From a virus, in IMG/VR virus record IMGVR_UViG_3300028048_000053, positions 98,692 through 162,691 of that record: a DNA stretch of 64,000 bases; one strand, given 5' to 3'. The position numbers were made by a program, and so were the translations under genes. Shown piece after piece: positions 1,253 to 44,600 of the stretch; within the stretch, counting starts at the first letter, position 1; each line of letters opens with the position of its first letter. The notes under the pieces were generated by a model. It had not been told where the DNA came from and did not search any database. It saw only the letters and a list, made by a program, of their open reading frames with translations.

Positions 1253-1468
1253 ATGGCAAAACATATAGTTATATGTAAATATTGCGGAGAAAAATTTGAT
1301 GCTAATAAAGAGCCTTATGTAATGGCTAGTTCAAGGCGCTACGCCCACGCTAGCTGCGCGGCCGCCGCAGACGCATCAAAAACCCAAGAAGAACGAGATA
1401 AAGAAGCTTTAGAAGCCTATATTAAACAATTATTTAATATACCCAAACTAACGCCAAAAATTAATTAG
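1253..1468 (+). CDS. Small Cys-rich (zinc-ribbon-like) hypothetical protein
   Basis: CxxC...C...C pattern. An RBS-like GGAG lies upstream. Contains one GCGGCCGC motif. Confidence 0.4.
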   Translation: MAKHIVICKYCGEKFDANKEPYVMASSRRYAHASCAAAADASKTQEERDKEALEAYIKQLFNIPKLTPKIN

Positions 1469-1803
1469 CAAATTAAAACCTTTTACGAAAAAAATGGATA
1501 TTCTTATTCGGGTATGTTAAAATGTTTAATTTATTTCTTTGAAACGCAGAAACATTCTATCGACTAGGCTAATGGAGGTATAGGGATTGTTCCATATATA
1601 TGGGAGTAGGTGTAGCAATACTATTTCTCACTTTGGCTTATACAACAAAAGAATGAAAATAAAAATATTCAAGAGTTTAAACCTCAAGAGATTATAATTT
1701 CCATCCCACCACCGCAAAGAAAAATCAAAAAACGAAAATTATTTAGCTTTTTAGATAAGGAGAATGAAGAGTGAGTTCAAAATATGTTGATACTACAAGT
1801 ATA

Positions 1804-3315
1804 ATGTAGGTCATCGGCAACGTCTACAAGAATCCTTCTCTCCTGGATTAGACAGATAAATATGTAATTACAGATGAAGATTTTCCAGACCAATTCCATA
1901 AGATAGCTTTTGGTACTATTTTTAAATTACATGAGCTTGGGGCGCAAAAGATTACCTTAAATGATATTGTAAATTTCTTATCAACTCGTCCAAAAAGTGA
2001 AGCTATCTTTAAGCAGCAAAAAGGCGAAGCGTGGTTTACCAAAATTATTGACTCTGTAATTCCCGAATCGTTTGACTATTACTATGATAGATTAAAGAAA
2101 TTTTCACTATTAAGGGCTTATGATAATTTTGGAATTGATGTTAGTGATATTTATGATATTGATAATATTCTAGATTCCAAAAAGAAGCAACAACAAGAAG
2201 ATATTTTGGATAACTCTTCTTTAACGCAAATCGCAGATATGATAGACAGTAAAATAGATGCTATTCGTTTAAAATTTGTTGATGATTGTTATGAAGAAGC
2301 AGAACAAGCCGGTGAAGGAATTTTTGACCTAATAGAAAGTTTTAAATTTCGTCCAGAAGTAGGAGTACCTTTGTATGGGCCTTTTATTAATACTGTGACG
2401 CGCGGAGCCAGGCTTAAAAAGTTCTACTTACGGAGCGCAGCGACCGGGGTTGGCAAGACGCGCAGTATGATTGCTGACACCTGTTACATAGGTTGCGACC
2501 GAATATATGATGAATATGTTGGATGGATTAAAACCGGAGCCGCGCAGCCAACTCTATTTATAACAACAGAGCAAGAAAAAGAAGAAATCCAAACAATGAT
2601 GTTAGCCTTTTTGTCAAATGTTAATGAAGAACATATCATTAATGGGCGATATGAGGGTGATGAAGATAGTAGGGTATTAGAAGCAGCCAAGATATTATCC
2701 GAAAGTAAAATCTATATTGATGAACTACCGGACTTTTCATTATAGGATATTGAAAACCATATAAAGAAAAATATCCGTGAACACGATGTACAATACGTTT
2801 TTCAAGATTACATACATACCTCCATGAAGATTCTTGAAGAGATTACACGACGTAGTGGCGGAGTTCGTTTAAGAGAAGATAATATCTTATTTATGTTATC
2901 TAACAAACTTAAAGACCTATGTAATCAGTATGGAATTTTTATCATGTCCGCAACTTAGCTCAACGGAGATTATGTCGATGCCGAAACGCCGGACCAAAAC
3001 TTGCTTCGCGGGGCTAAGGCGATTGCTGACAAAATTGACTACGGGAGCTTGCTTCTGCTCTCTCGTGAGCGAGACTACGAGGCTCTTGAACCCATATTAT
3101 CAAAATCAACTTTTGAAAAACCAATTATTAAAATGTCTATTTATAAAAATAGACGAGGAAGATATAAGGGTATTTACCTTTGGTGTAAGGCCGATTTGGG
3201 TACTTGCCGCATACAACCCATGTTTGCAACCGGATGGGATTATGAATTAATTCAAATGGATGATGTAAAAATCGAATTAAAAGATGAAGCTCCTTGGGAG
3301 ACAAAGAAAGGATAA
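1804..3315 (+). CDS. dnaB: DnaB-like replicative helicase. The N-terminal domain and RecA-like C-terminal domain are contiguous only if 4 in-frame TAG codons (1807, 1849, 2743, 2956) are read as sense.
   Basis: Walker A GARLKKFYLRSAATGVGKT. C-terminal DnaB-type block ...SATQLNGDYVDAETPDQNLLRGAKAIADKIDYGSLLLLSRERD. All fragments lie in frame 1. The start is uncertain: ATG 1804 or GTG 1771. Confidence 0.8.
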
Positions 3316-3321
3316 AATCTA

Positions 3322-3519
3322 ATGACAGTAAATAAGACAGGTTCTCTACATGAAAGAGTTGGAAGCGTAGAATATATCATGAATAGCGCAATGGCGGACG
3401 AAATTTTAAAAACTCGCAAGGGCGACGACAAAAAGCTGCGGCCGCAGGACTATTTAATCAAATATGTAAATGAGGATTGCGGACTGCTAAGAAATTGCAC
3501 CAAAGTGACAGTGATTTAA
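3322..3519 (+). CDS. Hypothetical protein (65 aa)
   Basis: ORF between the helicase and the primase with an RBS-like AAGGA upstream. No TAG. Confidence 0.3.
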   Translation: MTVNKTGSLHERVGSVEYIMNSAMADEILKTRKGDDKKLRPQDYLIKYVNEDCGLLRNCTKVTVI

Positions 3520-4623
3520 TTGTTAATTTTTGACAAGAAAGAAATTCGAGATAGTTTAACTCTTGAACAAGTTTATGAGCTTTTAGACCACTGGGGAGCT
3601 GAACCAGAATACTGCCCAACTGGTCTAATTGCTCGGACCATTTGTCACAATCCACCTAATGAGCCGGCTTCTCGCAAATTATATTATTATCAAAATACTA
3701 CTTTATTCCAATGTTATAGTAATTGCGGATTATTTGATATTTTTGAACTAACAATCAAAGTAATGCAAATTCAGCACAACATCACATATGATTTAAATGA
3801 AGCGGTAAGATGGGTTGCTTAGTATTTTGGTTTTTCGGGCAAAGAAGAAAATATTGAAGAAATAAATTCATTAGAGGATTGGAATATTTTTGCCGGATAT
3901 GATAGGATTTAGGATATATAGATTAAAATGCCCGATATTGTTCTTAAAGAATATGATGACGATATTTTAACTCGATTCAATTATGATGTAAAACTAGAGC
4001 CATGGTTGAAAGAGGGAATTTCCCAAACGGTATTAGACCATGCTGAAATTGGTTTTTATCCAGGAGGGGATTAGATTACAATTCCTCATTTTGACAAGGA
4101 TGGTCGATTTATAGGCTTGCGCGGCCGCAGTCTCAGTGAAGAAGATGCCCAACTCTATGGTAAATATAGACCAATTCGAGTGAATAACACCATCTACAAC
4201 CATCCACTCGGAATGAATCTTTATAATCTTAATAATAGTCGATTTAATATATCAAAAATTAAAAAAGCTATAATATTTGAGTCCGAAAAGAGCACCCTCT
4301 TATACCAAACATACTTTGGCTTTGATAACGATATTTCTACAGCTTGTTGCGGCAGTAATATTTCAGCCTATCAAATGTAGCTACTTCTGGACGCGGGGGC
4401 GCAGGAAGTTATTATAGCTTTTGACCGACAGTTTCAAAACGTTGGAGATAAAGAATTTATCGCATTAAAAAAGAAAATTACGAAGATATATGATAAATAT
4501 AAAAATTATATAACAATTAGCTTTATATGGGATAAGAAAATGATAACCGGATATAAAGCCAGTCCAGTAGACGAAGGAAAAAATAAATTTTTGTAGTTAT
4601 TTAAAGAAAGGATATTTTTATGA
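3520..4623 (+). CDS. dnaG: DnaG-like DNA primase (CHC2 zinc ribbon plus TOPRIM), with about 6 in-frame TAG codons
   Basis: N-terminal zinc-binding pattern CPTG...HNP...CYSNCG. TOPRIM-like IIFESEKS and VIIAFDRQ acidic motifs. All fragments lie in frame 1 and the gene ends with TGA at 4621-4623. Confidence 0.7.
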
Positions 4624-4714
4624 ACTAAAAAGGGTGATAGTGATTAATCTAATAGAAAGAATTTTCAAGAATATTAATAGATGGTGATTAATATGAAAGG
4701 GGGTTGAATATTCT

Positions 4715-6490
4715 ATGGAATATCAACTATTAGGCCCGGAACTCTTGGATAGAACAGATTTAACGCCAATCGAACGGGTCTTCTTAAACAGGGGCATTGA
4801 GCCTCAAAATATTAATCACTATCTTCAAACGACCGAAGAAGATATTTTAAATCCATTGTTGTTAGAAAATATGGATAGAGGGGCAAGGATGTTAGTAAAG
4901 CATTTTGCGGCCGGAGATAAAATTTTTATCTAGGTAGATAGCGATGCAGATGGTTATACAAGTTCAGCAGCCTTAATTAACTATCTTAACTTCATTGCGC
5001 CAGGGCATACACAACAAAATATCTCTTATCGGTTGCACGAAGGAAAGTAGCATGGTATTATTTTAGATACCATTCCTTCAAACATTAAATTACTTATTGT
5101 TCCAGACGCGGGAAGCAATGATATAGAACAATAGCGCATACTATCAGAATAGGGAATCGATGTTTTGGTATTAGACCATCACGAGGTTGAAGAAAAATCT
5201 CCATATGCTTGCATTATTAATAATCAATCCTGTGATTATCCGACTAAGTCTCTATCTGGTGTGGGTATAGTATATAAGTTTTGTTAGTATTTAGATACTT
5301 TGTTAAATGTAAATTATTCATCAAAAATATTAGATTTGGTCGCTATTGGAATTATAAGTGATGTAATGGATTTACGAGATTATGAAACAAGAGAATTAAT
5401 CACTCTTGGTTTTAATGATATTGAAAATCCTTTTATTGCGGCTTTTGTAGAAAAGCAATCTTACAGCTTAAAGGGGGAATTAACCCCAGAGGGCGTATCA
5501 TTTTATATTGCACCATATATTAATGCTACTGTAAGAATGGGTAGTTAGAATGAAAAATAGCTCTTATTTGAGTCAATGCTAAACTTTAAAGCCTATGATA
5601 AAATTCTATCAACAAAACGAGGAAGTAAAGGATAGCTTGAAACAAGAGTAGAGCAAGCTTGTAGAAATTGCACTAATATTAAGAGTAGACAGACCAAAGC
5701 AAGAGATACAAGCCTAGAGATAATCAGGTCTATCATCGAGGAAAATGATTTAGCAGATAATCCAATATTAATTATTTAGTTAGAGAATCCAGTAGAGGAA
5801 AATCTAACGGGATTGATTGCTAATCAATTAGTAGGAGAATATCAAAAGCCCGTTCTTTTATTAAATAGATACATAGAAGTTGATGAAAGCACTGGTGAGG
5901 TATTAACAAACTCTTGGAGAGGTAGCGGACGTAACGACTCTTATTCTAAGCTAGGGAACTTGCGCGAATTGGTAGCAAATAGTAATTTAGTAGAATTCGC
6001 GTAGGGACATGCCTCTGCCTTTGGACTTAGTGTTTTGGATGAAAACATAGAATCATTAAAAACATATTTATATGAAGTATTAAAGTAGTTTGATACATCT
6101 GCGTGCTATTATGTTGATTTTATTTGGAGTGGCAACAATGCAGAATAGTCAAAGAATACGATACTTGATATAGGAAGTTTAAAATCTATTTGGGGCCAGG
6201 GATTAACCAAGCCCCAGGTCGCCATAGAAAATGTAAAAGTAACCGCAAATAATTTAACTTTAATGTCGCAAGACAAAAATCCGACACTAAAAATAAAACT
6301 TCCTGGTGATTTAAGCCTGATTAAATTCAGGTCGAGTAAAGAGGAATATGATTCATTATATTCTGAAACTGGTTGTGTTATAATTAATATCGTTGGCACT
6401 TGCGAACAAAATGTGTGGAACGGTAATATTAGTCCTCAAATCATTATTGAAGATTATGAAATTGTAAGTAAAACTGCCTATTACTTCTAA
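4715..6490 (+). CDS. recJ: DHH-family phosphoesterase, RecJ-like ssDNA exonuclease, with about 12 in-frame TAG codons
   Basis: DHH motifs VDSDADGYTSSAA, VPDAGSND and VLDHH. The ORF fragments 4715, 5300, 5813 and 6263 are all in frame 2. Confidence 0.7.
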
Positions 6491-7294: not shown

Positions 7295-7299
7295 ACTCT

Positions 7300-8126: not shown

Positions 8127-9303
8127 AATTGCGATAGAGCGATATAAAAATCACGAAAAGTTTACCGTAATTTCGGGTTATGCTGGAACAGGTAAATCAA
8201 CGCTGGTTAAGTTCATCGTAGAAGCACTACCAGATATTGAGCCTGAATTGGACGTAAAATATGTAGCATATACAGGAAAAGCCGCTAATGTTTTAAAAAA
8301 TAAAGGTTGTCCAGGAGCAACAACAGCTCATAAATTGATTTACGAGGCTCGTATGATGCCAGATGGTAAATATAGTTTCTTCCCTCGCCAAGAGCTAGAA
8401 GGCCATCCATTGGTAATTATTGTAGACGAGGTCTCAATGTTACCTAAAAAAATGTGGGACAGACTATGTTCTTATAATGTCTATATTATCGCTTGCGGCG
8501 ACCCCGCATAGCTTCCTCCAGTGGCGGACAAAGGAGAGGACCCAGACAACCACGTACTTGACCATCCGCATATTTTTCTTGATGAGATTATGCGGCAGGC
8601 CGCAGAAAGTGAAATTATCAGATTGTCAATGCATGTCAGAGAAGGAAAATCCTTATCTTTATATTGGGCAGAAAATAAAGAAGTAATGATGATTCCAAAA
8701 GGTGAGCTAACTAATGATATGCTCCTGTGGGCCGATGAAGTTTTGTGTTCAACCAATGGGACTTGCGGCCGCCTGAATAATCGTATGCGCCAGGCCAAGG
8801 GATTGTTCGGGGACCCCCAGGTTGGGGATAAAATTATTAATCGTCATAATGAGTGGGAGTTTTTATCAAATAAACAAAACCCTTTAACAAACGGAATTAT
8901 CGGTACGGTAGTAGGTAATAATTATAAACAAGACATTTATTACCCAGGATGGATTCGTAAAGAAGACCACAACTTTTCCATCCCGGTGTATTGGTGTGAT
9001 ATGGCGGGTGATGAAGAGGGAGAGATTTTCTCTGGAGTCATGATGGACTATGAAATGATAAACGGCAGAGAAGAGAGTTTGAACGGTAGGGAAAAATACC
9101 TAATTAATCGCTCTAAAATTAAATCCTTTATTCCCTTTACTTGCACCTATGGATATGCCATCACCACCTGGAAGGCCCAGGGCAGCCAATGGGATAAGGT
9201 CTTGCTAATGGACGAAGGATGGCCATATGAGCCAGAATTACGTCAGAAATTTTTATATACAAGTATCACACGAGCTGCGAATAAATTGGTGATTATTGTT
9301 TAA
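8092..9303 (+). CDS. SF1 DNA helicase of the Dda/RecD/Pif1 type
   Basis: Walker A GYAGTGKST. Motif III reads GDPA-TAG-LPPV, so TAG 8509-8511 sits exactly at the invariant Gln. Both halves are in frame 1. C-terminal ...YAITTWKAQGSQWDKV is RecD motif V/VI-like. Confidence 0.85.
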
Positions 9304-9537: not shown

Positions 9538-12050
9538 GTGAAGATTAACGATAGATATTATCCAGGTAGTCTTCATAATTAAACCATACGGATTATAGCA
9601 ATTTAAGACTACGCGATTCTATTAACACTATTTCAGGACTGATAGATTATGCTATAGAACTTAATCACGAAGTTATTGCTATAACAGACCACGAAAGTGT
9701 TAGTAATGCAATAAAGGTAGAGAAATATTATAATTCAATTAAAAAAGAACATCCAAACTTTAAAGTAATTTTAGGAAATGAAATATATCTAACCCGTGAT
9801 GGCCTTAATGCAGAGAACTTTGACAAAACCCAAGATAAATATTATCACTTCTTGCTCTTGGCGAAGGACGCTATTGGACATCAACAAATTAGAGAACTTT
9901 CTACAAGAGCATGGCTACGTTCATACACCGCTCAGAGAATGCGAAGAGTGCCAACCTATTATCAAGATTTGATTGATATTATCGGGGCAAATCCTGGTCA
10001 TGTCATTGCGTCAAGTGCGTGTTTAGGTGGCTTTATTCCAACTGAATTGCTTCAATGGAACGAAAATAAAGATGATAATTTTTATCAAAAAATTGTTCAA
10101 TGGGTTATTCAAATGAAACAATTATTTGATAATAATTTTTACCTGGAATTACAGCCGTCTGCTTCAAAAGAACAAACATTCGTAAATAGAGAATTGATAA
10201 ATCTATCAAGATTAACCAATACTCCATATATAATAACGACCGATAGCCATTATTTAACCAAAGAAGACGCAAGTATTCATAAAGCATATCTTAATTCGCA
10301 AGATGGTGATAGAGAGGTTGATAGCTTTTATGCAACAACCTATATGATGAGCACAGAAGAACTTGAATCACATCTAGACCTGACTGAAGAAGAATTAGTA
10401 TATGCGTATGAGAATATTTTGAACATCAAAGAGTCGTGTCAAGACTTTAGTTTATTAAAACCGCTTCGTATTCCAGAGCTGCTTTGGAAAACATATCCAG
10501 AAGATAGAGAAGCCATTGAGCACTATTCTCAATTAATTCCTTATCTTCAAACTTTTTATACCTCTGAATATATTGGCGATAAAATATTGGTTAATGCTAT
10601 TGTTGATAAATTAAAGAAAGAGACAAAATTAAACGAACAAAATACTTATGATGCTATAAATACTTGTTTGGAAATGACTTGGATTTCTTCGGAAGTAAAC
10701 AAGGCGCATTGGTCGGCATATTATTTAAATTTACAAAAAATTATTGATACTTGTTGGGAAGCTGGTAGTATTGTTGGTCCAGGGCGTGGTTCTGGCGTTG
10801 GATTTATCTTACTTTATATTTTAGATATTACCCAAATTAATCCTCTATGGGAAGATGTGCGGACGTTCGCTTGGAGATTTTTGAATCCAGCTCGTGTGTC
10901 CGTATTAGATGTAGATTTTGACATCGAGGGTGGCCGGCGGCCGCAAGTATTAACGAAGTTTAGAGAAGTTTATGGCGAAGACAGAGTAGCAAACGTAGTA
11001 ACTTTTGGAACCGAAAAATCTAAATCGGCGATTTTAACTGCGGCCCGTGGACTGGGTATTGATGTAGATGAAGCACAGTATATTTCATCTTTAGTTCCAT
11101 CTGATAGAGGAATGATACGCACCTTAAAACAATGCTACTACGGCGACGAAGAAAATGGTTTTGCCCCAATATCTTCTTTTATTAGAGAAATGGATGCCCG
11201 GCCAGAGCTCTGGCAGGTAGCGCAAAAAATAGAGGGTCTTGTATGCAGAATGGGTATTCACGCTGGCGGAGTTATTTTTGTTGATGAACCGTTTACTAAT
11301 ACAACGGGTCTTATGCGGGCACCCGATGGAACAATTATAACAGCCTTTGACCTTCATGACGCAGAAGCAGTAAGCCTTATTAAATATGATGCTCTTAGCG
11401 TTGAAGCCGAGGATAAAATACATGCTTGTATGGATTTGCTATTGGCCGATGGTGTTGTTGAGCCAGGAGCAACTTTAAAAGAAACCTATGAAAAGATAGT
11501 GGGTATATATGGACTTGAACGCGACGACCCCAAGATGTGGGAAATGGTTTGGAATCATAAAATCCTGTCGCTATTTCAAATGGAACAGCAAAGCGGTATT
11601 CAAGGTATTGCTTTAACAAAACCGAAAAGTGTAGAAGATTTAGCCCACTTGAATTCAGTCATTCGCTTAATGGCTCAAGAAAAAGGTGGAGAGCAGCCTT
11701 TATCCAAGTATGCTCGATTTAAAGAGAATCCAAAACTGTGGCGTCAGGAAATGACAAAATATGGATTGACAGAAGAAGAGCAACAGTTATTGGTACCATA
11801 TGTTGGAGGTTCTTATGGTATTTGCGAAAGCCAGGAGGGTTTCATGCAGTTGGTACAGATTCCAGAGTGTGGCGGCTTTGACCTAAACTTCGCAGACCGA
11901 CTTCGCAAAAGTATTGCAAAAAAGAATCCAAAAGAGTATGAAGCATTAACTAAGGAATATTTTGAAGTTACTGCGGAAAAAGGATTAAGCAAAAATCTGT
12001 GCAACTATGTATGGAACGTACTGGTAGCGACAAGTCGTGGTTACGGTTTT
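9538..12050 (+). CDS. dnaE: DNA polymerase III alpha subunit (DnaE-type), exon 1: PHP domain, palm and most of the fingers. There is an apparent frame break after codon 14.
   Basis: PHP motifs LHNHTDYS and AITDHESV. Palm motif GPGRGSGVGFILLYILDITQINPL. The ORF finder start at 9852 (TTG) would delete the PHP domain. GTG 9538 has an AGAGGGTGA RBS. The exon ends at U 12050 inside GYGF|N. Confidence 0.75.
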
Positions 12051-14276: not shown

Positions 14277-14485
14277 ATCCTTAGCATTATAAAATTGGCG
14301 GCATTGAGTGCATCGACGCACTTGCGGCCGCCACTACCGGGCTGGAAGGAATTGAAGCAGTTTGTACTGCAAATGCCATTAAATATTTGTGGCGTTGGAA
14401 ATATAAAAATGGCCAAGAAGATTTAAAAAAGGCCAAATGGTATATTGACCATCTGATTAAAGAATTGGACAAAAATAGCCAATAA
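14246..14485 (+). CDS. DUF3310-family phage protein
   Basis: NPQHYK..GIECIDA...NAIKYLWRW...DL.KA.WYIDHL pattern. One TAG. Contains a GCGGCCGC motif. Confidence 0.5.
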
Positions 14486-17453: not shown

Positions 17454-17916
17454 TATTGCAAATGGTGAAGGTATTGGAGTGTCTTTTTTTGTATAGGGAT
17501 GCCCAATAAGATGTTTTAATTGCTTTAATAAAGAAACATGGGATTTTAATGGCGGAAAAGAATTTACTATTGACACATTAACTGAAATTATTGAAGCGAT
17601 AAAAGCAAATGGAATAAATCGCCATTTTAGCGTATTAGGTGGAGAACCCTTATGCCAAGAAAATTTATTTTTAACAGCTTTAGTAATCAAAACCGTTCGA
17701 GAAACATATCCAAATATAAAAATTTATGTGTGGACTGGTTATACCGAAGAACAGCTTCAAAAGCGTACTGATAGTAAATTATCTTATATATTTGAAAATA
17801 TAGATTATTTAATAGCTGGGCCTTATATTGACAGCGAACGCGATATAACGCTCCCCATGTGCGGCAGCCGCAATCAAAAAATCATAAAAATGCATGAGGA
17901 AGATAAAAATGGGTGA
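17425..17916 (+). CDS. nrdG: Anaerobic RNR activating enzyme NrdG (radical SAM)
   Basis: GCPIRCFNCFN cluster (CxxxCxxC). One in-frame TAG. Frame 1. Ends with TGA at 17916. Confidence 0.8.
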
Positions 17917-19418: not shown

Positions 19419-19613
19419 GTAGTTGATTCTGATTACTACAATAACCCAGATAATGAAGGACATATTATGTTTGCTATCTATCCTTTTAAGAATACTATTA
19501 CACTAAAAAAGGGAGACCGTATCGGACAAGGAGTATTTCTTCCATATGCTATCACTGACTCAGATACTGCGGCCGGCGCGCGCACTGGTGGTTTCGGCTC
19601 TACATCATGAGAC
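19419..19613 (+). CDS. dut: dUTPase exon 2 (motifs 3-5)
   Basis: VVDSDYY, GDRIGQ and RTGGFGSTS motifs. Confidence 0.8.
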
Positions 19614-20092
19614 TTTTAGCACTAGACCAAAGTAGCCGCATTACCGGCTACGCGGTGTTTATAGATGATAAGCTTGAAACATATGGAAAAATAGATTTAA
19701 AAGATGACGATATAGGTATTCGCTTAAACTCTCTCCGCGACCAAATCGCCCTGCTAATTATGAATTATGGAATTGATGAAGTCGCTTTTGAAGATATTTA
19801 CATGGACGGATAGAAAATAAACAATGTTTCTACTTTTAAAATATTAGCCGAAGTGTTCGGTGTATGCTATGAATTGTTTACTGATTTAAACATTTCAAAT
19901 ACAGCAGTATTAGCTGGAACGTGGAAATCTACTCTTGGAATAAAAGGAAAAACTCGTCCAGAGCAGAAGAAGGCCGCACAAGAATGGGTTAAGGCAAACT
20001 ACAATGTTGCTCCAACACAAGATGAAGTAGATGCTATTTGTATAGGCGCCCATATTCTTAAAACTAAACAAAAAACCTTTAATTGGCAATAA
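19607..20092 (+). CDS. RuvC-family Holliday junction resolvase
   Basis: MRLLALDQSSRITGYAV N-terminal catalytic motif. One in-frame TAG. Frame 2. Confidence 0.7.
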
Positions 20093-27687: not shown

Positions 27688-28323
27688 ATGATTACACATT
27701 TAGCAATAATTCCAGATGGCAACCGAAGATGGGCCAGGGAACGTGGTCTACCCGATGGGGCTGGACACGCGCAGGCCCCAACCGTATTATTGCGGATACT
27801 TGATTGGTGTATAGATAAACAAATCAAATATTTAACAGTTTATTGTTTTTCTTCCGATAATTGGAAACGCTCTTCGGAAGAAAGAGCAAATTTAAATGCT
27901 ATTGCCATTCAGTTTTTTACTGATTTTACAGATTGGTTTTTGAAAAACGATATTCGTTTTGTCGCTTAGGGAGATAGAACTGGTTTTAATAAATTCAGCG
28001 AAGAGTTATAGAGCTGTATCTATCAGGCAGAAGAAAAGACAAAAAATTGTTCAACTTTAACAGTTTTTTGTTTACTTAACTATAGTGGTCAACAAGAATT
28101 AATAAATACCATTTCTCAAGGCAAAACACCCGCAGACCTGCGGCCTCCGGTAGATGTAATTGTTAGGACTGGCAAAGAAAAGCGTTTAAGTAATTTTTTA
28201 CCCTGGGAAGCTTGTTATGCTGAGTTAGTATTTAGAGACGAGTATTTTCCAGATATTGACTATTTTATTTTAGAAGATATTTATCAGGAATATGAATCTC
28301 GAGATAAAAGATATGGCAAATAA
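27688..28323 (+). CDS. uppS: Undecaprenyl-pyrophosphate synthase homologue (cis-prenyltransferase, UppS)
   Basis: HLAIIPDGNRRWA, LTVYCFSSDNWKRS, DVIVRTGKEKRLSNFLPWEACYAELVF and C-terminal RDKRYGK align with E. coli UppS blocks. One in-frame TAG at about 27970. Confidence 0.8.
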
Positions 28324-31437: not shown

Positions 31438-33165
31438 TTATACGATTTGATTGCTTGTGTAATAAGTTGTGTTGATATCTGGAGTGCCTGTAAATGTGCC
31501 GCCTGTATTTAAAAACATGTTAGAAAGTGCGTTGCTCGCCGTCGTTCCCGTTCCTTCTGCCGGTATGCGGTATGAGGATTGGTATTCTTCTGACGTAGAT
31601 AATTGTATTTTTGTACAACCTTTAAACATACTGTCATAGCATCCGGTTGTAAGTTTTGTTGCTGGCAGAGATGGTAAACCTATGAGCTCGACACACTCTT
31701 GATACATATATCTGTAGCAGTAGTTTGCAAGACTCGTTGCTGGAAGTCTCGTTGGTGTCTGGAGACTGCTGCATCCCCGGAACATAGCCTGATAGCAATA
31801 GGCCGCAAGAGTGGTAGCGGGGAGATTCGGCGCCTGACGCAGAGAGCTGCACCCTTCAAACATGGATGCGTAGCAAGATTGACCAAGCGATGTGGCGGGT
31901 AGCTCCGGGGGAATCTGCAAAGATGAGCAGCCTTCGTACATGCGCCCATAACAGTAAGCTGCTGCGGTGGTGGCTCTCAAAACGCCGGGATTCTCGAGTG
32001 CGCTGCAGTATCGAAACATAGAATGGAAGCAGCTACTATTTAGGCTTGTAGCAGATATATCAGGAGCAGAGAGCAGTCTTGTACACCCTTCAAACATACT
32101 TTGATAACACTTATCCTTCATCGATGTGGCAGGGAGCGCCGGAGCCGATTCGAGGGAAGTGCAACCCTTGAACATTTCACAGTAGCACATCGTTCCAAGC
32201 GTTGTTGCAGGCAGGGCCGGAGGCACCTTGAGGCTCGTGCAGCCTTTGAACATATTGGTGTAGCAGTACCCACTTGAAAGCGATCTCGCCGGAAGCTCTG
32301 GTGCATCTTCAAGGGCAGTGCAATTCTCGAACATGTATCCGTAGCAGGTCATAGGCAGCGACGTTGCCCTCAGCGCAGGAGCTTTGCGGAGCGCAGTACA
32401 GCCTGAAAACATAGAGTGATAGCATTTTTGGCCTAATGAAATAGCTGGAAGTTCAGGGGGCTCGACCAATGATTTACATCCAGAAAAGCAGAGAGTAAGG
32501 CAGTTTGCTCCAAGCGACGTGGCGGCGATAACGGGCGCTTCGCTTATCTTGCAGGCAGCAAACATCCCGTTATAGCACGATTCTGGGGCAGTTTTAGCTG
32601 GCAAGATTGACGGGCCTTTCGTCAGGTTCGTGCAGCCGTGGAACATATAAAAGAAACATTGCTCGGAAATTGTTGGCAACGGGATTTCAGGGGCAGAAAC
32701 AAGCGCAGTACAACCATAGAACATGCAAGAAAAAGCACCTGTTGTCACCGACGGGTGAAGCCCATCAGCCACTTGTTGATAGTCAAGTAAGTTCTCGATG
32801 TTCCCTGAGCAATGGACATTTTCTCCAGTAATTGTCCATTTATAACTTGGCGGATAATTGAAATTATATCCGGTAATCTTGGTATTATTTCTCCCACGTA
32901 GATATAATTTGTTTTTCTATCCACTTGTAAGTGTATCTTCGCCATCCCATACCTCCCACGTCCTCCCATTAGTAGACCATTCCAGCGTTCCATTCCAATG
33001 CTTAAAAGCGGTCAATGTAAACGGTCCTATGCTGCTAAAAGTAAGACACGAATCATTCACAGGCTCTTCGGTTTTTTCCCAAAGCTATATATCTCCTTGA
33101 TATACCTTTTTTATATTTTTTTCGCCTTTATAAATAGCCGAAATATTTTCCCAGTTAGAAATCAC
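31438..33165 (-). CDS. Surface/receptor-binding protein with about 16 BspA-type leucine-rich repeats (LRR_5 family)
   Basis: Repeats of C(Y/F)xxMFxGC(T/S)SLxxxPxLPAT(S/T)L, about 23 aa, throughout 31438-32772. That part is GC-rich and TAG-free. The frame continues upstream through 2 TAG codons to GTG at about 33165 with a GAGGAAGAGGAG RBS. Confidence 0.7.
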
Positions 33166-33388: not shown

Positions 33389-36300
33389 TCAAACCTCGCT
33401 TCCAAAGCTAATTTCATCCCCTTGCTGCAAAGACCCTGCAATCAAACGTCCCTTAACATATGCCGTTTTTCCCTGTCTAATGTCTCTACTTGTTGCATTT
33501 GCACTACTAGTATCGACAATGTAATCTACTTCTTCTGGAATATTTTCTGAAGACTAGTTAATAACTGGAACCAATGCACCATTTTCCTCATTTATATTTA
33601 TTTCTCCGACTTCTATTATCATTCTATCCTTATCTACATATAAAGAACCAATAGCATCCAAGAAATCAGTAGTGTTACCAATTCCAATAGCAGTAAGATT
33701 ATTATAGTTAAAATCAGCAACTTCATATGCTTGGCACTAAAAACTGTGTATCATGCGGCCGAGCTAGTCCTGTGGCGTTAGAGAGACATTCATCAATCGC
33801 ACTATAAAGTTTCCCTCATAAGGAGATTTAAACATTTTTATAGTGCCACTATTCAACCATTCTAGCAAAGCCATTTTGTATTCTCGTTCAACGCGAACGG
33901 TATACCCAGTTAAACTAGTAGCAAATATGTTACTTCTTATTTCTTGATAAGAAGGTGTCTCATCTCTTGGTGAGTTTTCATTGGAGATATTTATTAGTGT
34001 ATAAATATGATAATCAGTTATTTTTATTTTTCTATAAAAATAACCTGGCTGATTTCCATTTACAAAATTTGCCATAAATTCACCATATGAATCCTGGTAT
34101 AAAGATAAATCTGCCATAGATTTAGGATCTGTTTCAGACCAGTATAACTTTCCACCTCTAGAAAGATAAATTCCGGTTCTACTATTTCTCTCCATGTGGT
34201 CGTAATAGGATGATGTTGATGAATCTAAAAATGCAAGATCTATTTTATTCAACGCTAAATTAGACCAAGGCTATTGTGCTGAAAAATATAAATGTTCATT
34301 ATCTATATGCTGCTCTGACGAAAAATTATCAGATATATCAATAAATTTTAAATTTTTATTATATAAAGAAATTACTTGATAATATTTATAAGAACTGTTA
34401 TTCCAAAAGCCAGCAATTAGAGAACCTATATTATTATCAGTTATTTGTATTAAATCCAACTTTGAGGTTGGCGCAGAAACAGTTGTATAATAAAGATTAT
34501 CCTTGTCAGTTTTAGTGTTTAACTTTCTTAGTGTTAAAGTGTTAATGCCGAGTTCCTAAAAATACTAATCATCTGGAAAAGCTGTAAATATTCTCTTATT
34601 CATTAATACGTCATTGTGATTGGAAACATAAATCTTTTTATCTAAAGGCAAAAATTGATTAGTTTCATCATCATCCATATTGAATGAAATTAATCCGTTA
34701 AGAGGAAATTCTCTGTATTTAACATTACCATTTCTAAAGAAAAAAGGATATTTACTTCCTATTGTATCCATCTTCTGCTCTAAAATAGTTTGTTTAAAAG
34801 AGCTTACTTTAGGATTAAAACGAATCTTAACTTGTTTATCTCCGTCATACAAAAACATATCTTCAAAATCAGAATATACAATATTAGAGGAAGAATAAGA
34901 AGATACATAGCCATATTTGTCGCACAGAGAATATCTGTACTAATGAAAAATTCCTTGCTCAATTGTATAATCGCGGTAAGAAAAATTTCTTAATTCAAAG
35001 GAAGAAGACAAATTAATAATATCAATTTTCTGCCAGGACGTAAAATCATCCCTATCGTCAGCTCGCTGTATTAAAATCGACAAAGGGAGATATTTAAAAT
35101 TATGATGTATTCCAAAATCGTTAGGTAAAAAATCAAAAATATTACGAATATCTAAAACGGTAATAAAATACCATCCGTCGACAGTTCCAAAATATAAAGA
35201 CAAATCTTTCTAATATATTACTTTTTTTAAATAACCTTGTTCTATTAAGTATTCATAATCCACGATATCTCCATCATCAAAGTATTGAGAACCCTAGCCT
35301 GGTAAAAAATAAGTCTCAGAACTATCATAAACTTCTCCATTGCCCACTATCATTCCACGTAAAGGAACTGTATTTGGTATTAATTTGCGAAGCTATGGTA
35401 ATCTCTAGCTCGATCCACGATACTCAAATACTTCTTTGTAACCGTTTAATAAATATGGCGTAATGCTTCCATGGGCAAAAAGTGTCTTACTGTAATTGGT
35501 GTGCGGCAATTCAACAACAAATAGATAATCTGAATCCTCAACTTTAGTAATTTCACTATTCTCATATACTTGTTCAATGTAAGATAACGCCTTTTGTTTA
35601 TTAGTCTGAAATTTTAAAGTAATATAACCGTTATCAAAATCATTGTCCGCGACTAAATCCATGATTTGCCGCACATCCTCAACATATACCAAAGCAATAT
35701 TATATTCTTCTGATTGAATTTCATAATTGTTTATTGTTTTAACGCAATATTTTACTTTATATTTTTCTTGTGGCTCAATATCTGTTTCAAAGGTATATGT
35801 ATCTCTATATACATAGTTTACGCTATTAACAGTATCATCTATTGAGAAATTATGCATCTACCAACCAGAATCTTCAATTACATTATTATCTTTCGATAAT
35901 ATAAACTTAAATTGATACGGTTTCTCTGTTACATCTGGGTTCACATATACTCCTGTGCAAACAGAAGAAAAATAATTTATTTTATGAATATCGTATTGTT
36001 GAATCTCAACAGTTGGGTGCTATGTATACTTTCCAGTAGCAACAGTAGAATAAAACCCAACAACGCTTGTGGTTATGTTAGTAGATGAATCTCTGGTTGT
36101 TTTAACATATGCCATCTGGAACTTATAATACTGACCAACTTTAAATCTTTGAAATACTGTTCTATTTTCACTGGCGTCTCTAATATAAAAAACAGCTTGA
36201 TTGTTTAAAACATCCGGGTCAGTTGCCGTCACTATATAATTATTACTTTGTGCGGTTTTAATTTTTAAATTAAAACTATAAGATATATCGCTGTCGCTTT

Positions 36301-36547: not shown

Positions 36548-36552
36548 TAATT

Positions 36553-36774: not shown

Positions 36775-39700
36775 TTAGGAATCAGAATTACCGCCGCCGT
36801 CTACTAAAGCATCGACTCGCGCCTTTAACCTGTTAAAAACTGAAATTTCGACATAACTACTTAAATCTGAAGTTTTGACATAATTACTTAAATCTGAAGT
36901 TTTGACATAATTACTTAAAGATGAGCCGATATAATCAATTAAAGACTAGCCACTCTCGCCTATCCTAATAGCACCGATTAAAAAAATTTGCGTACCTGTA
37001 ATATGAATACCATCGTTTTGACAAGAAACGTAATTTTTTACTTCACCGCTTCCATATTGATATGAAATCGCTGCATTAGACCCTGTGATTTTTACAACAC
37101 TGTTTCCATCACCCTGGGTGCTTACGTGAATTCCCACTCCATCATCACCTTCAGTTGATCCAGGAACTCCGCTACTAACCTATCCAATAGTCCCAAGATT
37201 ATTAATCGTTATATAATTAGTTGAAATACCAGATGCACTACTTAAAACGGTAGAACCCCCGGATAAACTATCGCCATTAATTGTCCATCCACCAATTTGA
37301 CCGGCATCCGCCGAAAGATAACTGGCATAAACTCTACTACTACTGATAACGCCTTCAAATTGTCCACTCTAAATATAAGCAGTACCATCCCATCCAACTC
37401 TAAATTTACGCTAATTAATATTTTCACTCATTCCAATGGATAGGGGGTAGTGTTCTTGATTAACTCCTAATGTTATATATTTATTTGAAGGATTCTCTTC
37501 TCTTTTATAGTACTAAAAATCTACATTATACCGTTCGCCACTCTCCACTTGGCGATATCCCGAAGAATCGCGGTAAAAAAGATTGGAGGAATTAAAAGTC
37601 TCATTGTTGCCAGTAAAATACTAATTCTTGGCGATGTTATTAGAAATATAAGTATACTGTTCTGTATTTTTCACCATTTTAATATATCCGTCATCTATAT
37701 CAAGCAACATTCCCTATGGACTATTCTAATTGGCCCAATTAGACGAAAAAATCTATGATTTTTCTCCATCAAGATAAATGCGGCCACGTCCGTCTTTGCC
37801 GATAAACCCAGTTCCATCATCTTTAAAAGCATATGACATAGCACCATGATTAAAGCCATAAATCCCTGTATTTTTTGTTACAGCAGTTTCTGTACTAGTC
37901 CTAGACCAATCTCCTAGCACCACTCCAGTGAATGTATTGTCCCGTTCCTTGCGGCCGGCTGCAAATCCCGAGGCTACGATCGTTCCAGTATCATTATCTG
38001 TCACTATATCCTTACCATTCCATTTATTTAAAGTTGCAGAAGGATATTTATTTTCGTAGACTAGAATTGGCTAAGTCCATATGGGTACATATTCTAATTC
38101 AGAACCAAGTATATCCTCCATATGTGATACCCCTTCTTCATCCTGCACCTCTTCTTGTCCAATGACAACGTCAATAGTTTTTTCTTCAAAAAACTGTATC
38201 CCATAGGGTAATGCATCGGGAATAAAAATGCTAATAGGATTTAAAACAGGTTTATCAAATGTATCTTCTCCTAGCTTAGTTCCAGTTTCTTGTAAGGCTG
38301 GCTTGAAATTGTTTTCATTATTATCATCTCTCGGAGGAAATAGTAATTTCCAATGTCCATTTAAAGAATTTGTATTGTCGCCATGTCTTTTTGGAACAAA
38401 TTGACCATTTATTAATTCATATGCAGTAATTTGATAAGGATTTTTATAAAAATCTGCCTCTCCAGAAGAACCGTATCTTACTCTATCCGGACCTTCAATA
38501 TACTAAATTGAATATGTTTCAGTTTCACCATTTTTTAAAGCTATTGGATAATAAGATACAAGGTCGTAATCTCCGAAATTTTTTATTGTTAATTGAAGAA
38601 TGAATAAAGAATCCATATCAACATTTGAATCTGCAATGATAGTGACAGTATGATTATCATTATCAACTTCTGCTTTTAATCCACCATCACCCAAAAGATT
38701 TGGATAAATTTTTTCTTTTGCCTCTATTGGTTCATAGTATGTTTCGGCCTCTGAATAACCTTCCCATGGGTCTAGAACAAACTAATCGTTTATTTTAATA
38801 AAGTATCTTTTATTTTTTGAATAATAATACTGCTTATAATACTGGTTCTAGTTATCTTGAAGAAGTCGGATAGGTTCGGCACCATCACCATGATTAGGAT
38901 TATATTCGCCCGTTTCCTAATTTAAGGGATCGCTTGCAAAAGTAACAATCTACCTAAACTCTAATTTATTCTTTTCTTCTTTTTTATAATATACATTTTC
39001 CTCCCAATTAGCTTTCTCTTTAATTTGTCCTTCTGCATCATATACCGTTTCCAATGTATTATATTCTTCTTCATTTGTAATTAAAATATACCCACATTTC
39101 CTATATGGCTAATCTGTTTTGAGATTTATCTCACTTGTAAATTTTTCCGTTTCTGGATCAAATTTTACATAATTATGCGTCGTCTATGATGGATTTTCAA
39201 TAAAATAATAATAACCTGTTGGCTAATATAGAGCATCCGGATTATGTTCTAACCCAAAATTTAATGCATTATCACCGCTTGTAAAAACCGGATAATAAAT
39301 GTCCTATTCTTCTTTTTCCTTTATTCTATGTTCACTTGCTTCATAGCCAAATTCGGCTACATGCCAACTCGCATCAATAGTCGCTCCTCGCGGCCAAGCC
39401 ACTGTATCGCCAGCCTAATCAAAAATCTCTATATCTCCAATAAGAGCAGTTTCTGTTTTTTCCTCGTTATAAGGTTCTAAAAATTCTTCATTGTCATTCT
39501 TACTCAGATTTAAAGCATTCTTACCATCCCTCCAAGTAAGAATAACTTTATAATTAGAGCCATTATCCCCGGCCGTTCCAAATTCTGGCTATACAAAAGC
39601 ATGATAGTTCACGCCGTCTTTAAGGACATCCAACTAAATGGTATTGTTGGTTGCTCCATTATTTAAATGTTTCTTAATGGTAAAACCTACCTCTGTTACA

Positions 39701-41559: not shown

Positions 41560-41638
41560 ATATACTCACTCCTTTATCTCAGTTATTTCTATAATAATGT
41601 AAAAATTACAAAAGAATAATTGGTCAATTTAGCCCAAT

Positions 41639-41671
41639 AAAAAAATAGGGAAGAGAGTGACTCTCTTCCCT
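41639..41671 (-). terminator. Rho-independent terminator after the tape-measure gene
   Basis: AGGGAAGAGAG-tgac-CTCTCTTCCCT hairpin followed, on the minus strand, by a U-run. Confidence 0.6.
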
Positions 41672-41679
41672 ATTGATTA

Positions 41680-44600
41680 TTAAAAACGATTTGCATACTG
41701 AGAAGCTCTATTAACTAGATTGTTAAATGCTTCTTCAATTTCTAAGTGATTAGATACGTTCGGAAATTCTGCGGTGATGGTGACCGTTTGTTCTAGAGCT
41801 TGCGCTTGATTGCCTAGGCTTGGTAACGCAACACCCGCGGCCGCAGACATTGATAGCGCCTAAAGGTCTATTGCATCGGTAATATCTCGCAAAATCGCAA
41901 CACTGGCCAAGAAGTTTTTAGTATCATCAGCATTAAGAACCAGCTCTTTTTCATGCAGCATTGCTATCTTTCCTTCTGGACCCCAAAAACCGGTATAGCC
42001 TCCAGTATCAAAAGCTACACCCGTGTTACTTTTTGAACTACCATTAGCCGACGATAAACCAGAAAAAGCCTTTTTTAGGTATTCTTCTAAGCTCTCGTAA
42101 AATTCATACTTTCCATTTTGAAATTTAAATAATGTACCTCTTTCTCCCAAGCTTAAATCTTGTTGTTCCATAAATGTATGCGCGCGATTTAGATTATCAA
42201 AATATTTTGTTGTTGGATAACCAGAAGAAGAATACATTATTAATTTATAAGGAGATTGATTATTTTTATTATTGACATTATCTCCCTTAAAATTATTTAA
42301 TGTTCCGTTAGTGCTACCATCATCATTACCAGTTTTGACAGAAGCTGGTGGTGTGGCATAACTTGTACCAGTTGGACTGCCAACTGGGACATCATATACC
42401 GTTTTTTCATGCTTCGTAATTGTATATTCCTTATCTTCTATTTGGGCCAGCTCTTCAAGCATGGTCTAAATTTCTGTATTAATTGCTTGTGCTGCTTCAA
42501 CAGCCCCTCCCTCTTGAAGAAGAGCCGTATACCACTTCTGCCACTCTGCGGTAGCGTCACTAGCTGCAGTAGCTTGCTCTTTAAGAGATGTAATAAGACC
42601 CTTTTCGTCGCCTTCTCCATCAAGTAGAGTAGCTAATACTAGCTTATCAGCCGCTTCAATTTTTCCCAAGGCTGTTTCTAGGCTGCCATAGCGATTAACT
42701 AAACTGCCCTCAAGACTTGCATCTCCAATGGTGTCAGCCAGTAACTGGAGTACTGGTAGATTCTTGGTTTTCATAAGTTCCATTTCGCTGGTAACTTTTT
42801 CCTAGGTTGTTTGGGCATTGGACATAATACCACTATAAAAAGCATCCCACAAAGGATTATTAGTATTAAAGAAATCCTAAGTTTTACCAGTCACATTGGC
42901 AAAATTGGTAGTCCAGAAGCTATCCGAAGCGGTTATATATTCATAGTGTTTTTTTGTTAAATCTTCCCATTCTTTAGACCACGAATCATTTTCTTGAGTA
43001 ATCGAAGTATCCTAAAGAACCTAAGAAGCTATTAAATGGTCTTTGGTATTTGCTAAAATTAAATCATCAAAATACTTTTCTAAAGCGACTCTTTGCTCTA
43101 AATAAACTGGATTGGTCTAATCCGTCACATATTTAAGGTCTAGTTCTCTTAATGCATTGTATTTCTCTTGAGTAATCTAAATTAATTCTTTTGCATTATC
43201 ATTAGCCTATTGCAAAGATAAATTATATAAATCGCTCTATTTTTGCGCCAAATTAGCTTCGGCATCAGAAATATTATCTCTATCAGCAGTATAAACATAA
43301 CCAAAATTACCTTCGTTATCTCTCTATAGACGGACTGTAGACTTTGCATCCCGCGCTTCTTCAAGAGCTAGCTCAGCCTTAAGGACTTCATATTTGGCCT
43401 ACTCGATAGCCAAAGAATTTTTACTTAATTGATTTGTATTTTTAAGATTTTCTAACTCTATAGTAAAATTTCTTAATCTGATTTTAGAGTTTGAATTATT
43501 TGTTTTATCAATGTCTTTATTAACTTGCGAAATTAATTTGCTCATTTCGTAAGCCTAATTCGTTTTAGTTAAATATTTATCACCAAGTTTTTCGGCCAAA
43601 GACATTTGCTGGTTTATAGCATCCCAACCCAAACCGTTGGTATAGGTTTTTTCAATATCCTGATATCCCTATTGAATAGTATTTTTAACTTTTTCAATCA
43701 TTAGAGATATAACTTGATTAAATTTTTCTAATTCATTTTCTTCCGCTTCTTCAAAAGCTTTTGTAATAGCCTTTAATTCGTTTTCTGCTATCGTCAGACC
43801 ATTTCTAGCCGCTTCTATAGCATTCTCGTCTCCAGAAGCAAGAACTTCTTCGTAGAGACGCTTTGCCTCGTCAAAGTCTAACCGACGAGCTTCCTTTTGT
43901 TCCTTATAAGCATCTGTGGTAGCTTTTGCTACTTCTAGCTCTTTTTCTGCGTGATTTAGAGAAGCATCAATAAATTTACCAATCGAAGCAAAATCATCTT
44001 CTTGGGTCAAGGACATATAAATATTTTTCATATGTTCTAACACGGTATTGTTGTGAGCAAGTCTATCGGTAAACCAAGAAATTTTTTCGCCCATTTTCTA
44101 AAGGGTATCGCTGTAATATGTTTTAGCTGTTTCATTTAAATCCTAGATATTACCAAGCTCTTCATAAAGACCATCACTAATTTTTTGAATTTCCTCATAA
44201 TATTCGTCTTGATTAACCTAGCCAGCTGCTAGCAATGTGTTTAGCTCATTATAAGCAGACTAATACCGTTCTATGTTTTCTACAGCAAGGGAGGCTTTTG
44301 AATCGCTGCTCTAAGACCATAATAAAGCTGCTACCTCTCCTGTTTTATATACGTCATCACCCAGTTTAGATAGCTAATACTCAACCTCTTTTAAATCCCT
44401 GGCATTTAATTCAATATGAAATTCTAAATGACTGGTAATTTTTTCCATGCGTAAAGTATTCTGTTGACGTATCTTTTCTTGGTATTCAGTTATCTCTTCA
44501 TAATTTTTATCTATAGTTTTTTCAGTTTGAGAAACTAAATCTTGCAATCCTTGCCACTGTTCTTTTTCATATTTCAAGAAGTTATCATCTTGATAATGAG

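Follow-up and report, generated by a model that had tools for sequence, protein, structure and literature searches.

Why does the GC-rich 8-bp palindrome GCGGCCGC, the NotI site, recur inside the genes of an AT-rich virus? The question is raised by a 64,000-nt stretch of DNA, hereafter the window (positions 98,692–162,691 of the IMG/VR record IMGVR_UViG_3300028048_000053), part of the 172-kb genome of a rumen phage that is a distant relative of Bacillus phage SPbeta. An earlier note, made from the sequence alone, had claimed that this word was strongly over-represented in coding sequences, that it was constrained as DNA rather than as protein, and that most of its copies lay in a replication module.

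Over-representation of the palindrome

Under the standard genetic code the open reading frames (ORFs) of the window were short and broken up, and this code was dropped. With TAG read as a sense codon, ORFs of up to 3111 aa and a coding density of 94% were restored, and TAG = Gln was therefore used in all codon-aware tests. The early genes, several of which had none, contained 51 of the 323 in-frame TAG codons, and the late genes the other 272. The G+C content was ~35% throughout the window, and the coding strand changed near 20 kb.

Seven exact copies of GCGGCCGC were found in the window, where 0.12 were expected from dinucleotide shuffling (maximum 1 in 100 shuffles), 0.49 from shuffling synonymous codons within each gene (maximum 3 in 1000) and 0.32 from codon usage. 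The last value refers to the 28 codon-compatible positions of the window proteome, i.e. places where a synonymous choice could encode the word, of which seven (25%) carried it. The observed/expected ratio was ~125 on zero-order composition, and the excess over the codon-aware nulls was still more than 10-fold (about 15-fold or more). The over-representation was thus real and stronger than first described. The copies stood at the places originally given, with coordinates that were off by 0–5 nt. A codon-aware null that reproduced the count had been named as the outcome that would refute the claim; since this null failed to do so, the constraint acts on the DNA and not on the protein. The seven copies, followed by one near-site, are as follows.

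1358..1365, YorH-like gene (1253–1774, +), phase 0, GCG GCC GCC = AAA
3438..3445, within the 10-bp palindrome TGCGGCCGCA, small ORF (3322–3519, +), phase 2, CTG CGG CCG CAG = LRPQ
4121..4128, YorJ-like gene (3763–4623, +), phase 1, CGC GGC CGC = RGR, in a conserved G(I/L)RGR motif
8765..8772, AAA_30/RecD-like helicase gene (8092–9303, +), phase 1, TGC GGC CGC = CGR
10937..10944, DnaE/YorL-like gene (9939–12062, +), phase 2, CGG CGG CCG CAA = RRPQ, in a conserved IEGGRR(A/P)QVL motif
14324..14331, DUF3310 gene (14246–14485, +), phase 0, GCG GCC GCC = AAA
41837..41844, near the 3' end of the tape-measure gene (41680–51015, −), phase 0, GCG GCC GCG = AAA
12..20, +, near-site TGCGGCCAC, one transition from the palindrome

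All three codon phases were used, encoding AAA three times and RGR, CGR, LRPQ and RRPQ once each, in line with the earlier description of different reading frames. The extended forms also recurred, CTTGCGGCCGCC at 8762 and 14321 with its reverse complement at 10935, and CTGCGGCCGC at 3436, which also stood reversed at 4121 and 41837. All but one of the seven sites lay in the first 15 kb, which is the replication-gene block of the phage, giving a density of ~0.4 per kb there and 0.11 per kb in the window. No regularity was seen in the spacing of the sites.

The excess was specific to the word. Among the other all-G/C 8-mers, none filled more than 9% of its possible positions and the nearest ones overlapped the GCGGCCGC sites, while several had 80–90 possible positions with 0–4 realised. 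As a class, all-G/C 8-mers were realised 57 times versus 20.5 expected. The palindromes GCGCGC, GGCGCC, GCCGGC, CCGCGG, GGGCCC and CCCGGG were all at expectation in the window. Codon usage and alanine runs were ruled out as the cause by the synonymous shuffle, the analysis of potential sites and codon-pair tables in three frames.

The GC-rich islets that the earlier note had listed do exist: 14 thirty-nt windows reached 73% G+C or more, against ~1.4 positions by a binomial estimate. Several coincided with conserved protein motifs (DnaB Walker A at 2431, dUTPase motifs at 18984 and 19559), and the islets are a looser phenomenon, partly separate from GCGGCCGC. As the source of the signal, GC islets in general and an unspecific bias toward GC palindromes were both rejected, given the word specificity and the other GC palindromes being at expectation.

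Word family, strand and reading frame

The palindrome was not an isolated 8-mer but the peak of a wider family consisting of TGCGGC[C/A], GCGGCC and CGGCCG. The words deviating most from the codon null were TGCGGCC (13 versus 1.4 expected) and GGCCGCA (10 versus 1.6), together with GCGGCC and CGGCCG, and the top over-represented 7- and 8-mers in the window were overlaps of GCGGCCGC. On the sense strand of the genes, TGCGGC occurred 28 times and its complement GCCGCA 26 times, each versus 7.9 expected from the codon null. The equal sense and antisense enrichment indicates that double-stranded DNA is acted on rather than mRNA or protein, and an RNA-level signal was ruled out on the same ground. 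Codon pairs were skewed to the same word in three frames: GCG-GCC (12 versus 2.5) and GCC-GCA (13 versus 5.4) for Ala-Ala, GGC-CGC (5 versus 1.0) for Gly-Arg and TGC-GGC (6 versus 1.2) for Cys-Gly. Half-words and paired half-words outside the seven palindromes are listed below.

4906..4912, +, TGCGGCC half-word in the DHH/RecJ-like gene
8591..8604, inverted paired half-words TGCGGC-AG-GCCGCA
11039..11045, +, TGCGGCC in DnaE
17860..17872, inverted paired half-words TGCGGC-A-GCCGCA
19568..19574, +, TGCGGCC in the last dUTPase exon, in a GC-rich islet encoding motif V
19972..19978, −, RuvC-like gene, GGCCGCA (minus-strand TGCGGCC)
21875..21881, +, TGCGGCC antisense to gene 21482–22288
22654..22660, +, TGCGGCC antisense to gene 22564–22962
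28139..28145, +, UppS gene, TGCGGCC preceded by CCGCAG and a single mismatch away from GCGGCCGC
31801..31807, −, GGCCGCA
33754..33760, +, TGCGGCC
37779..37785, +, TGCGGCC, where RGR codons differ from the palindrome at one base
37950..37956, +, TGCGGCC in a GC-rich islet
50113..50119, −, tape-measure gene, GGCCGCA, with TGCGGCC in sense orientation
50368..50374, −, tape-measure gene, GGCCGCA
55288..55294, −, GGCCGCA, kept in strain L081
60851..60857, −, GGCCGCA, kept in strain L082 and lost in L081 (TGCGGTC)
63600..63606, −, GGCCGCA, kept in L081 and L082

Avoidance of GCWGC driving the sequence toward GCSGC was ruled out, as GCWGC was at expectation in the window (95 versus 93.5). GATC was strongly avoided (43 versus 167 expected in the codon-shuffle null), and 24 of 74 relatives had less than a quarter of the expected copies, a deficit that suggests hosts with GATC-specific restriction.

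We also noted an over-representation of CGCAGA, CGCAGAC and CCGCAGA that was confined to the sense strand of the genes (CGCAGA 32 versus 8.6 expected, its complement TCTGCG 9 versus 5.6). It is a signal of its own, specific to one strand and with a partial overlap with GCCGCA.

Replication genes versus the rest of the genome

In the genes of the first 20 kb, GCGGCCGC stood at 6 of 10 codon-compatible positions versus 1 of 18 in the remaining genes (Fisher's exact P ~0.003), the single realised copy outside the replication block being that at 41837. Two of the ten positions overlap realised sites, so that occupancy is effectively 6 of 8. Sub-words were enriched in both parts, about twice as strongly in the early block, where TGCGGCC filled 22% of its possible positions versus 11% elsewhere (~1% expected). 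The G+C content at third codon positions (GC3) was the same in early and late genes (0.284 and 0.279). Two more GCGGCCGC sites were found in the 10 kb upstream of the window, which encode gyrase, ligase, ThyA and YorF, and 7 of 14 codon-compatible positions were filled in a 21-kb locus of the window strain (L162). About half (~50–60%) of the codon-compatible positions in the replication block were thus occupied.

Relatives were collected from IMG/VR as 80 loci around DnaE homologues (60–80% amino acid identity, mostly from rumen-type metagenomes) and 80 loci around capsid homologues, hereafter replication and structural loci. These contained ~150 NotI sites in 1.5 Mb of replication loci versus 23 in 1.37 Mb of structural loci, and in the five contigs that held both kinds of locus the counts were 13 versus 2. 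TGCGGC was equally enriched in the replication and structural loci of the relatives.

Clade-specific words in related phages

In most replication loci the most over-represented 7-mers were GC-rich palindromes, and the word varied by clade as follows.

GCGGCCG as top word: L037, L024, L034, L039, L041, L048
(GC)n, i.e. GCGCGC, as top word: L021, L022, L029, L032
TGCGGCA, TGCGGCG or CTGCGGC as top word: L025, L026, L059, L042
TGGCGCC as top word: L010, L011

The favoured words filled substantial fractions of their codon-compatible positions. L037 carried NotI sites at 12 of 24 positions (0.56 per kb) and GCGCGC at 24 of 48, L022 carried GCGCGC at 46 of 86 (about 2 per kb) and NotI at 0 of 8, and L010 carried GGCGCC at 10 of 50. 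At the other extreme, the 22 kb of L056 had GGCC at 0 of 300 and GCGC at 0 of 303 possible positions, where 9–12 were expected, and GCGC was absent from L042 while sister clades carried it at up to 9.8 times expectation. Forces of opposite sign thus act on restriction-type palindromes within one phage family. GCSGC and GCGC were above zero-order expectation in nearly all relatives.

In the (GC)n clade (L021, L022, L029 and L032; 32% G+C), tracts of GCGCGC, CGCGCG and GCGCGCGC appeared about every 500 bp in replication genes, at up to ~130-fold over composition. Such alternating tracts are potentially Z-DNA-forming.

The shape of the unit could be read from the NotI-rich loci. G preceded CGGCCG in 223 of 298 half-sites (75%), and from these half-site counts the 149 CGGCCG sites were derived to comprise 78 full 8-mers, 67 with a match on one side and 4 with neither. 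One-base variants were commonest at the outer positions (NCGGCCGC 21–36 versus 0–20 for most inner variants, as raw counts), so the inner 6-mer CGGCCG looks like the core. The unit is a symmetric 8-mer.

TGCGGC was close to strand-symmetric in replication loci (26:21, 13:13, 18:17 and 16:13). TGCGGCC was oriented in structural loci only, with 153 copies versus 46 on the capsid-gene strand, although many of these loci are close kin and the count is uncorrected for phylogeny. In L059, CTGCGGC occurred 2 versus 14 times on the two strands, and in the window all six TGCGGCC copies beyond 40 kb were on the minus strand. A Chi-like switch of polarity near 40 kb was considered for the window; the pattern is suggestive with small numbers, and the strand symmetry in relatives lends it no support.

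Turnover of sites between strains

Strains that were 89–100% identical kept most GCGGCCGC sites, with two differences that were both transitions: GCGGCTGC in L164, and GCGGCCAC at window position 13, where the sister strains L161 and L164 have the full GCGGCCGC. The site at 1358 was kept in L161, L163 and L164, and that at 3438 in L161. At greater distance both were gone, the homologous residues at the former being unrelated and those at the latter reading MHPQ or NKQ. Three of the seven window sites lay in poorly conserved stretches. TGCGGC-type sites turned over among strains ~90% and ~94% identical in the last 7.5–9 kb of the window. At 55277–55283 the window has GCCGCA (TTGCCGCAGAA) and strain L081, ~94% identical, has TGCGGC (TTGCGGCTGAA), so that two substitutions kept the word and flipped its orientation.

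Two conserved protein motifs were informative at the family level. In the DnaE motif IEGGRR(A/P)QVL, the window writes CGG CGG CCG C, which needs Pro in place of the Ala found in most relatives. Another register (GGC GGC CGC) forms the NotI site in about 10 relatives, and the nearest relative, L001, has CCGGCCGC. At the G(I/L)RGR motif of the primase-position gene, NotI was present in the window and in 7 of 66 relatives, while most others use CGC GCG and thereby form GCGCGC. The homologous codons of relatives differed by point changes, and the site-bearing genes were intact. NotI-rich lineages had 24 codon-compatible positions versus 8–10 in relatives, which implies that amino acid changes helped to create sites.

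The description of the motif as conserved at the DNA level therefore did not hold in the positional sense: close strains keep most sites, and across the family the same place shows another register, another palindrome or none. The sites have been re-made repeatedly in different codon registers, sometimes with amino acid changes, and are not positionally conserved elements.

Possible origins of the palindrome

Of the roles proposed at the outset, a site for a binding, nicking or modification enzyme, or a recombination hotspot, is possible in general terms, and a packaging signal or a single replication signal is at odds with many sites scattered within ORFs. Exact palindromes, a clade-specific word, forces of opposite sign, independence of frame and strand, and deviants at outer positions point to a symmetric Type-II-like recognition system for double-stranded DNA.

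Cyanobacteria carry the highly iterated palindrome HIP1 (GCGATCGC) and, as alternate HIPs, GGCGCC, GCsGC and rCCGGy. Each of these words correlates with a methyltransferase of matching specificity and has its deviants at outer positions, and a ratchet driven by methylation-dependent mismatch repair has been suggested to explain them (Elhai 2015, PMC4390886). We tentatively favour, at somewhat less than an even chance, the interpretation that GCGGCCGC is a signature of this type: a symmetric double-stranded word, written by point substitutions wherever coding allows and linked to a methyltransferase or a restriction-modification system. Under this interpretation, GCGGCCGC would be the recognition sequence of a symmetric Type-II-like enzyme system whose specificity shifts between lineages, and could be read as overlapping GCSGC, GGCC and GCSGC, or as CGGCCG plus flanks. 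The system would most likely be linked to a cytosine methyltransferase or to restriction-modification and may be encoded by host or phage. Sites may accumulate because site-directed repair or gene conversion of heteroduplexes favours them, or through selection for site density, a type of model that has also been put forward for HIP1. Their excess in the replication block may mean that they are more beneficial in that module or that it has recombined differently in the past.

Several observations weigh against this interpretation. The 64-kb window, 16 kb of flanks and 160 related loci yielded no gene for a DNA methyltransferase, a Vsr-like protein or a restriction enzyme; regular-expression scans for methyltransferases returned nothing, and Pfam searches, which covered about two thirds of the proteome, returned none. 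A genome-wide enzyme alone does not explain the contrast between replication and other genes, either within the window or within the five contigs holding both loci. Deamination of 5-methylcytosine would erode the sites rather than make them. The density in the window, and even that in the early block, is below the ~1 per kb of HIP1. Finally, the DnaE comparison requires G-to-C transversions at some sites, and a T:G-specific Vsr drive alone is therefore insufficient.

One known enzyme considered was MtbP of SPbeta-group Bacillus phages, which methylates GGCC (PMC8270828), and multispecific cytosine-5 methyltransferases of Bacillus phages were classically assayed on GGCC, CCGG and GCNGC (PMC8936443). 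The window phage is colinear with SPbeta, and GCGGCCGC is the tightest possible overlap of GCNGC, GGCC and GCNGC. However, tblastn of SPbeta MtbP against the window and 164 loci found no homologue, and no such enrichment was seen in SPbeta itself or in SPbeta-group phages carrying MtbP. A scan of IMG/VR for MtbP likewise gave only unrelated contigs without enrichment, the AT-rich rumen ones among them having zero GGCC, GCGC and GCSGC; these results also count against the favoured interpretation.

Eight of the unrelated MtbP-like contigs (L264–L266, L284, L286, L288, L290 and L292; 42% G+C) each had ~22–33 copies of GGGGGG versus ~1 expected. They looked fragmented under the standard code, and their ORFs lengthened with TGA read as sense.

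The strongest rival, which we nevertheless consider doubtful, is that the palindromes are positively selected binding or cleavage sites of a phage-encoded dimeric protein that acts on the replication block and co-evolves with its site in each lineage. Such a protein might initiate replication or recombination by nicking or cutting, shut off early genes or organise the DNA. The module-specific saturation in the window and in relatives would follow directly, amino-acid-changing site creation suggests selection over drift, word choice is stable within clades, and free-standing HNH and GIY-YIG nucleases are encoded in the replication block. On the other hand, the sites lie inside ORFs without positional conservation or regular spacing, exact palindromes of 6–8 bp are typical of restriction-type enzymes rather than of regulators or homing endonucleases, the enrichment of TGCGGC and GCGGCC extends to structural genes, and no candidate protein was identified.

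Returning to the methyltransferase- or restriction-linked interpretation, we also considered a bolder version, which is unlikely as it stands: a virus-borne 'palindrome drive' in TAG-recoded SPbeta-like rumen phages, in which a lineage-specific restriction-type system, encoded by phage or host, would convert near-cognate sequences to its own site while sister lineages purge the words. Conversion would take place during replication or during recombination between co-infecting relatives, and the word would spread to about half of the codon-compatible positions in replication genes despite amino acid costs. Sister lineages facing matching restriction enzymes would purge the same words completely.

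It is improbable that the words are Chi-like, nuclease-attenuating or recombination-hotspot sequences of the AddAB/RecBCD of a (probably Firmicute) host, protecting linear phage DNA as it is replicated or packaged, a palindrome serving both orientations at once. In low-GC Firmicutes, known Chi sites are GC-rich 5–7-mers with GCG (AGCGG, GAAGCGG, GCGCGTG) that differ between hosts, as the clade words differ here. Chi sites and DNA uptake sequences are also short GC-rich host- or lineage-specific words inside genes, sometimes in inverted pairs, and the oriented TGCGGCC of structural loci and of the window beyond 40 kb, as well as the skewed CTGCGGC of L059, would fit such a signal. Those elements are asymmetric, however, and Chi is strand-skewed, whereas the phage words are palindromic and mostly strand-symmetric. 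Four lineage-specific words (GCGGCCGC, GCGCGC, GGCGCC and TGCSGCA) are true palindromes, which is unexpected for an asymmetric signal read on a single strand; TGCGGC is symmetric in replication loci; and the phage has genes for a Sak4-like annealase, a RecJ-like nuclease and a RuvC-like resolvase of its own.

Still less probable is that no sequence-specific factor is involved, and that GCGGCCGC is the commonest outcome where conserved Gly-, Ala-, Arg- and Pro-rich motifs undergo GC-biased gene conversion or recombination and local codon choice is GC-rich. The coincidence of GC-rich islets with conserved motifs, the class-wide excess of all-G/C 8-mers and the elevated GCSGC and GCGC of nearly all relatives agree with such a process. 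Word specificity already largely refutes it: GCGGCCGC fills a quarter of its possible positions while G/C 8-mers with 2–3 times more positions stay at 0–5%, other GC palindromes are at expectation, relatives choose other words or avoid them wholly, three of the seven sites fall in poorly conserved stretches, and GC3 is the same in early and late genes.

An artefact of NotI linker or adapter remnants or of assembly chimeras, suggested by the common use of GCGGCCGC as a cloning site, is already refuted, since all sites are in frame within intact genes, the same sites recur in independent assemblies of other samples (ENA and Logan contigs), and the phenomenon is seen in dozens of IMG/VR contigs from different metagenomes.

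Comparison with known systems

The phage palindrome resembles HIP1 in being a GC-rich 8-bp palindrome far above expectation, located within genes in every frame and created by substitution, not by a mobile element. Overlaps of the word rank next in enrichment, one-base deviants fall at outer positions, and related genomes swap in other GC-rich palindromes (GCGCGC, GGCGCC, TGCSGCA and TGCGGCG in the phage family). Two of the alternate HIPs, GGCGCC and GCsGC, also turn up in this family. It differs in that the genome is an AT-rich TAG-recoded virus, the word is another one and is concentrated in one gene module, the frequency of HIP1 is not reached, no cognate methyltransferase was found in the window, flanks or related loci, and some relatives wholly avoid related 4-mers.

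Very-short-patch repair by Vsr/Dcm in Escherichia coli raises the frequency of CCWGG-related words. It offers a precedent for site-specific mismatch repair, linked to a methyltransferase, that creates copies of a recognition word on both strands and in any reading frame. Its effect in E. coli is modest, however, it converts T:G to C:G only whereas transversions are needed here, and a Vsr gene was not seen.

Restriction-site avoidance is known in phage genomes (PMC6286503). The present family shares with it a lineage-specific pressure on short Type II palindromes, as seen in the avoidance of GATC by the window and the lack of GGCC and/or GCGC in L056 and L042, and differs in that GCGGCCGC is enriched to near saturation rather than depleted. 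Phage genomes are usually described as avoiding restriction-type palindromes, while this family is near-saturated or wholly avoiding by lineage.

We found no report of an iterated-palindrome phenomenon in phages in the literature searched. The present case is its phage counterpart; what is new is the word, the host context, the module-specific saturation and the total avoidance in sister lineages. The force overrides codon preference and sometimes protein sequence, and synonymous sites are not neutral here, which matters for analyses of codon usage and selection in phage genes. HIP1, the only comparable phenomenon, has been without a mechanism for 30 years, and the phage system has the advantages of many close genomes, clade-specific words and a sharp module contrast within one genome. 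It could make the HIP-type question directly testable by methylomes, gain/loss phylogenetics and crosses, and in viromes the signature might be used to mark a host or a lineage. A palindrome drive, if true, would be the first iterated-palindrome system in viruses and a tractable model for the HIP1 problem.

Phage and gene context

The window was 100% identical to positions ~98,686–162,685 of ENA contig ERZ27252073 k141_3465 (171,985 bp). Its gene order matched that of SPbeta (NC_001884), running yorF-yorG-yorH-yorI-yorJ-yorK-yorL and then ribonucleotide reductase, dUTPase and resolvase, with Yon/Yom structural proteins as well. Pfam matches were YorF, YorH, YonB, YonD_N, YonG_N, YomU, YomV and YomW. 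The kinship is called distant because the DnaE/YorL protein is only ~36% identical to SPbeta YorL, and the phage differs from SPbeta by its TAG = Gln code and 172-kb size. The nearest cultured relatives all infect Firmicutes, and megablast of the window found no close relative in INPHARED. ARAGORN found no tRNA, suppressor included, in the window, and no Rfam match reached the gathering threshold there. The main genes are as follows.

232–1209, YorG (Sak4/AAA_24), preceded by YorF
1253–1774, +, YorH
1804–3315, DnaB/YorI
3763–4623, +, YorJ-position (primase-position) gene
4715–6490, YorK, RecJ-like (DHH/RecJ-like)
9939–12062 (+) and 12412–13725, DnaE/YorL-like polymerase
downstream of DnaE/YorL, NrdD/NrdG, dUTPase and RuvC-like resolvase
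opposite strand, Yon/Yom structural genes, including the 3111-aa tape measure

The polymerase lay in at least two ORFs separated by a gap of ~350 nt, with an extra short ORF upstream (region 9343–13725), while its SPbeta counterpart is a single 3.9-kb gene. The gap may hold an intron, and a stretch at it (12372–12465) was conserved across many relatives. A free-standing HNH_3 gene followed DnaE at 13722–14276, and a GIY-YIG gene was found between nrdD and nrdG at 16758–17453. The dUTPase gene (18943–19607) was also split, with exon 1 ending near 19185 and the C-terminal motif V (RTGGFGSTS) at ~19565–19607. Its gap included a sub-threshold group I intron match at 19130–19381 (26.5 bits, E = 1e-4) and a 70-nt stretch at 19343–19418 that was 87–90% identical to sequences of unrelated phages. 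Compared with the window strain L162, the primase/RecJ region of strain L161 held inserted GIY-YIG and LAGLIDADG-like genes, and its helicase allele was divergent (window 4281–4943 and 8111 onward). These differences point to active homing-endonuclease traffic and mosaicism in the replication block.

Inside the structural block, a gene for undecaprenyl-diphosphate synthase (UppS) was encoded on the opposite strand at 27688–28323 (+; Pfam Prenyltransf, E = 8e-50). Its bacterial homologues were only 31–34% identical and came from many taxa, and were thus uninformative on the host. A 428-aa protein at 31438–32724 (−) consisted of Cys-rich repeats of ~23 aa with likeness to leucine-rich-repeat surface proteins; its gene had no TAG codons and a GC3 of 0.49 versus ~0.28 elsewhere, and looks like a recent acquisition from a GC-richer source.

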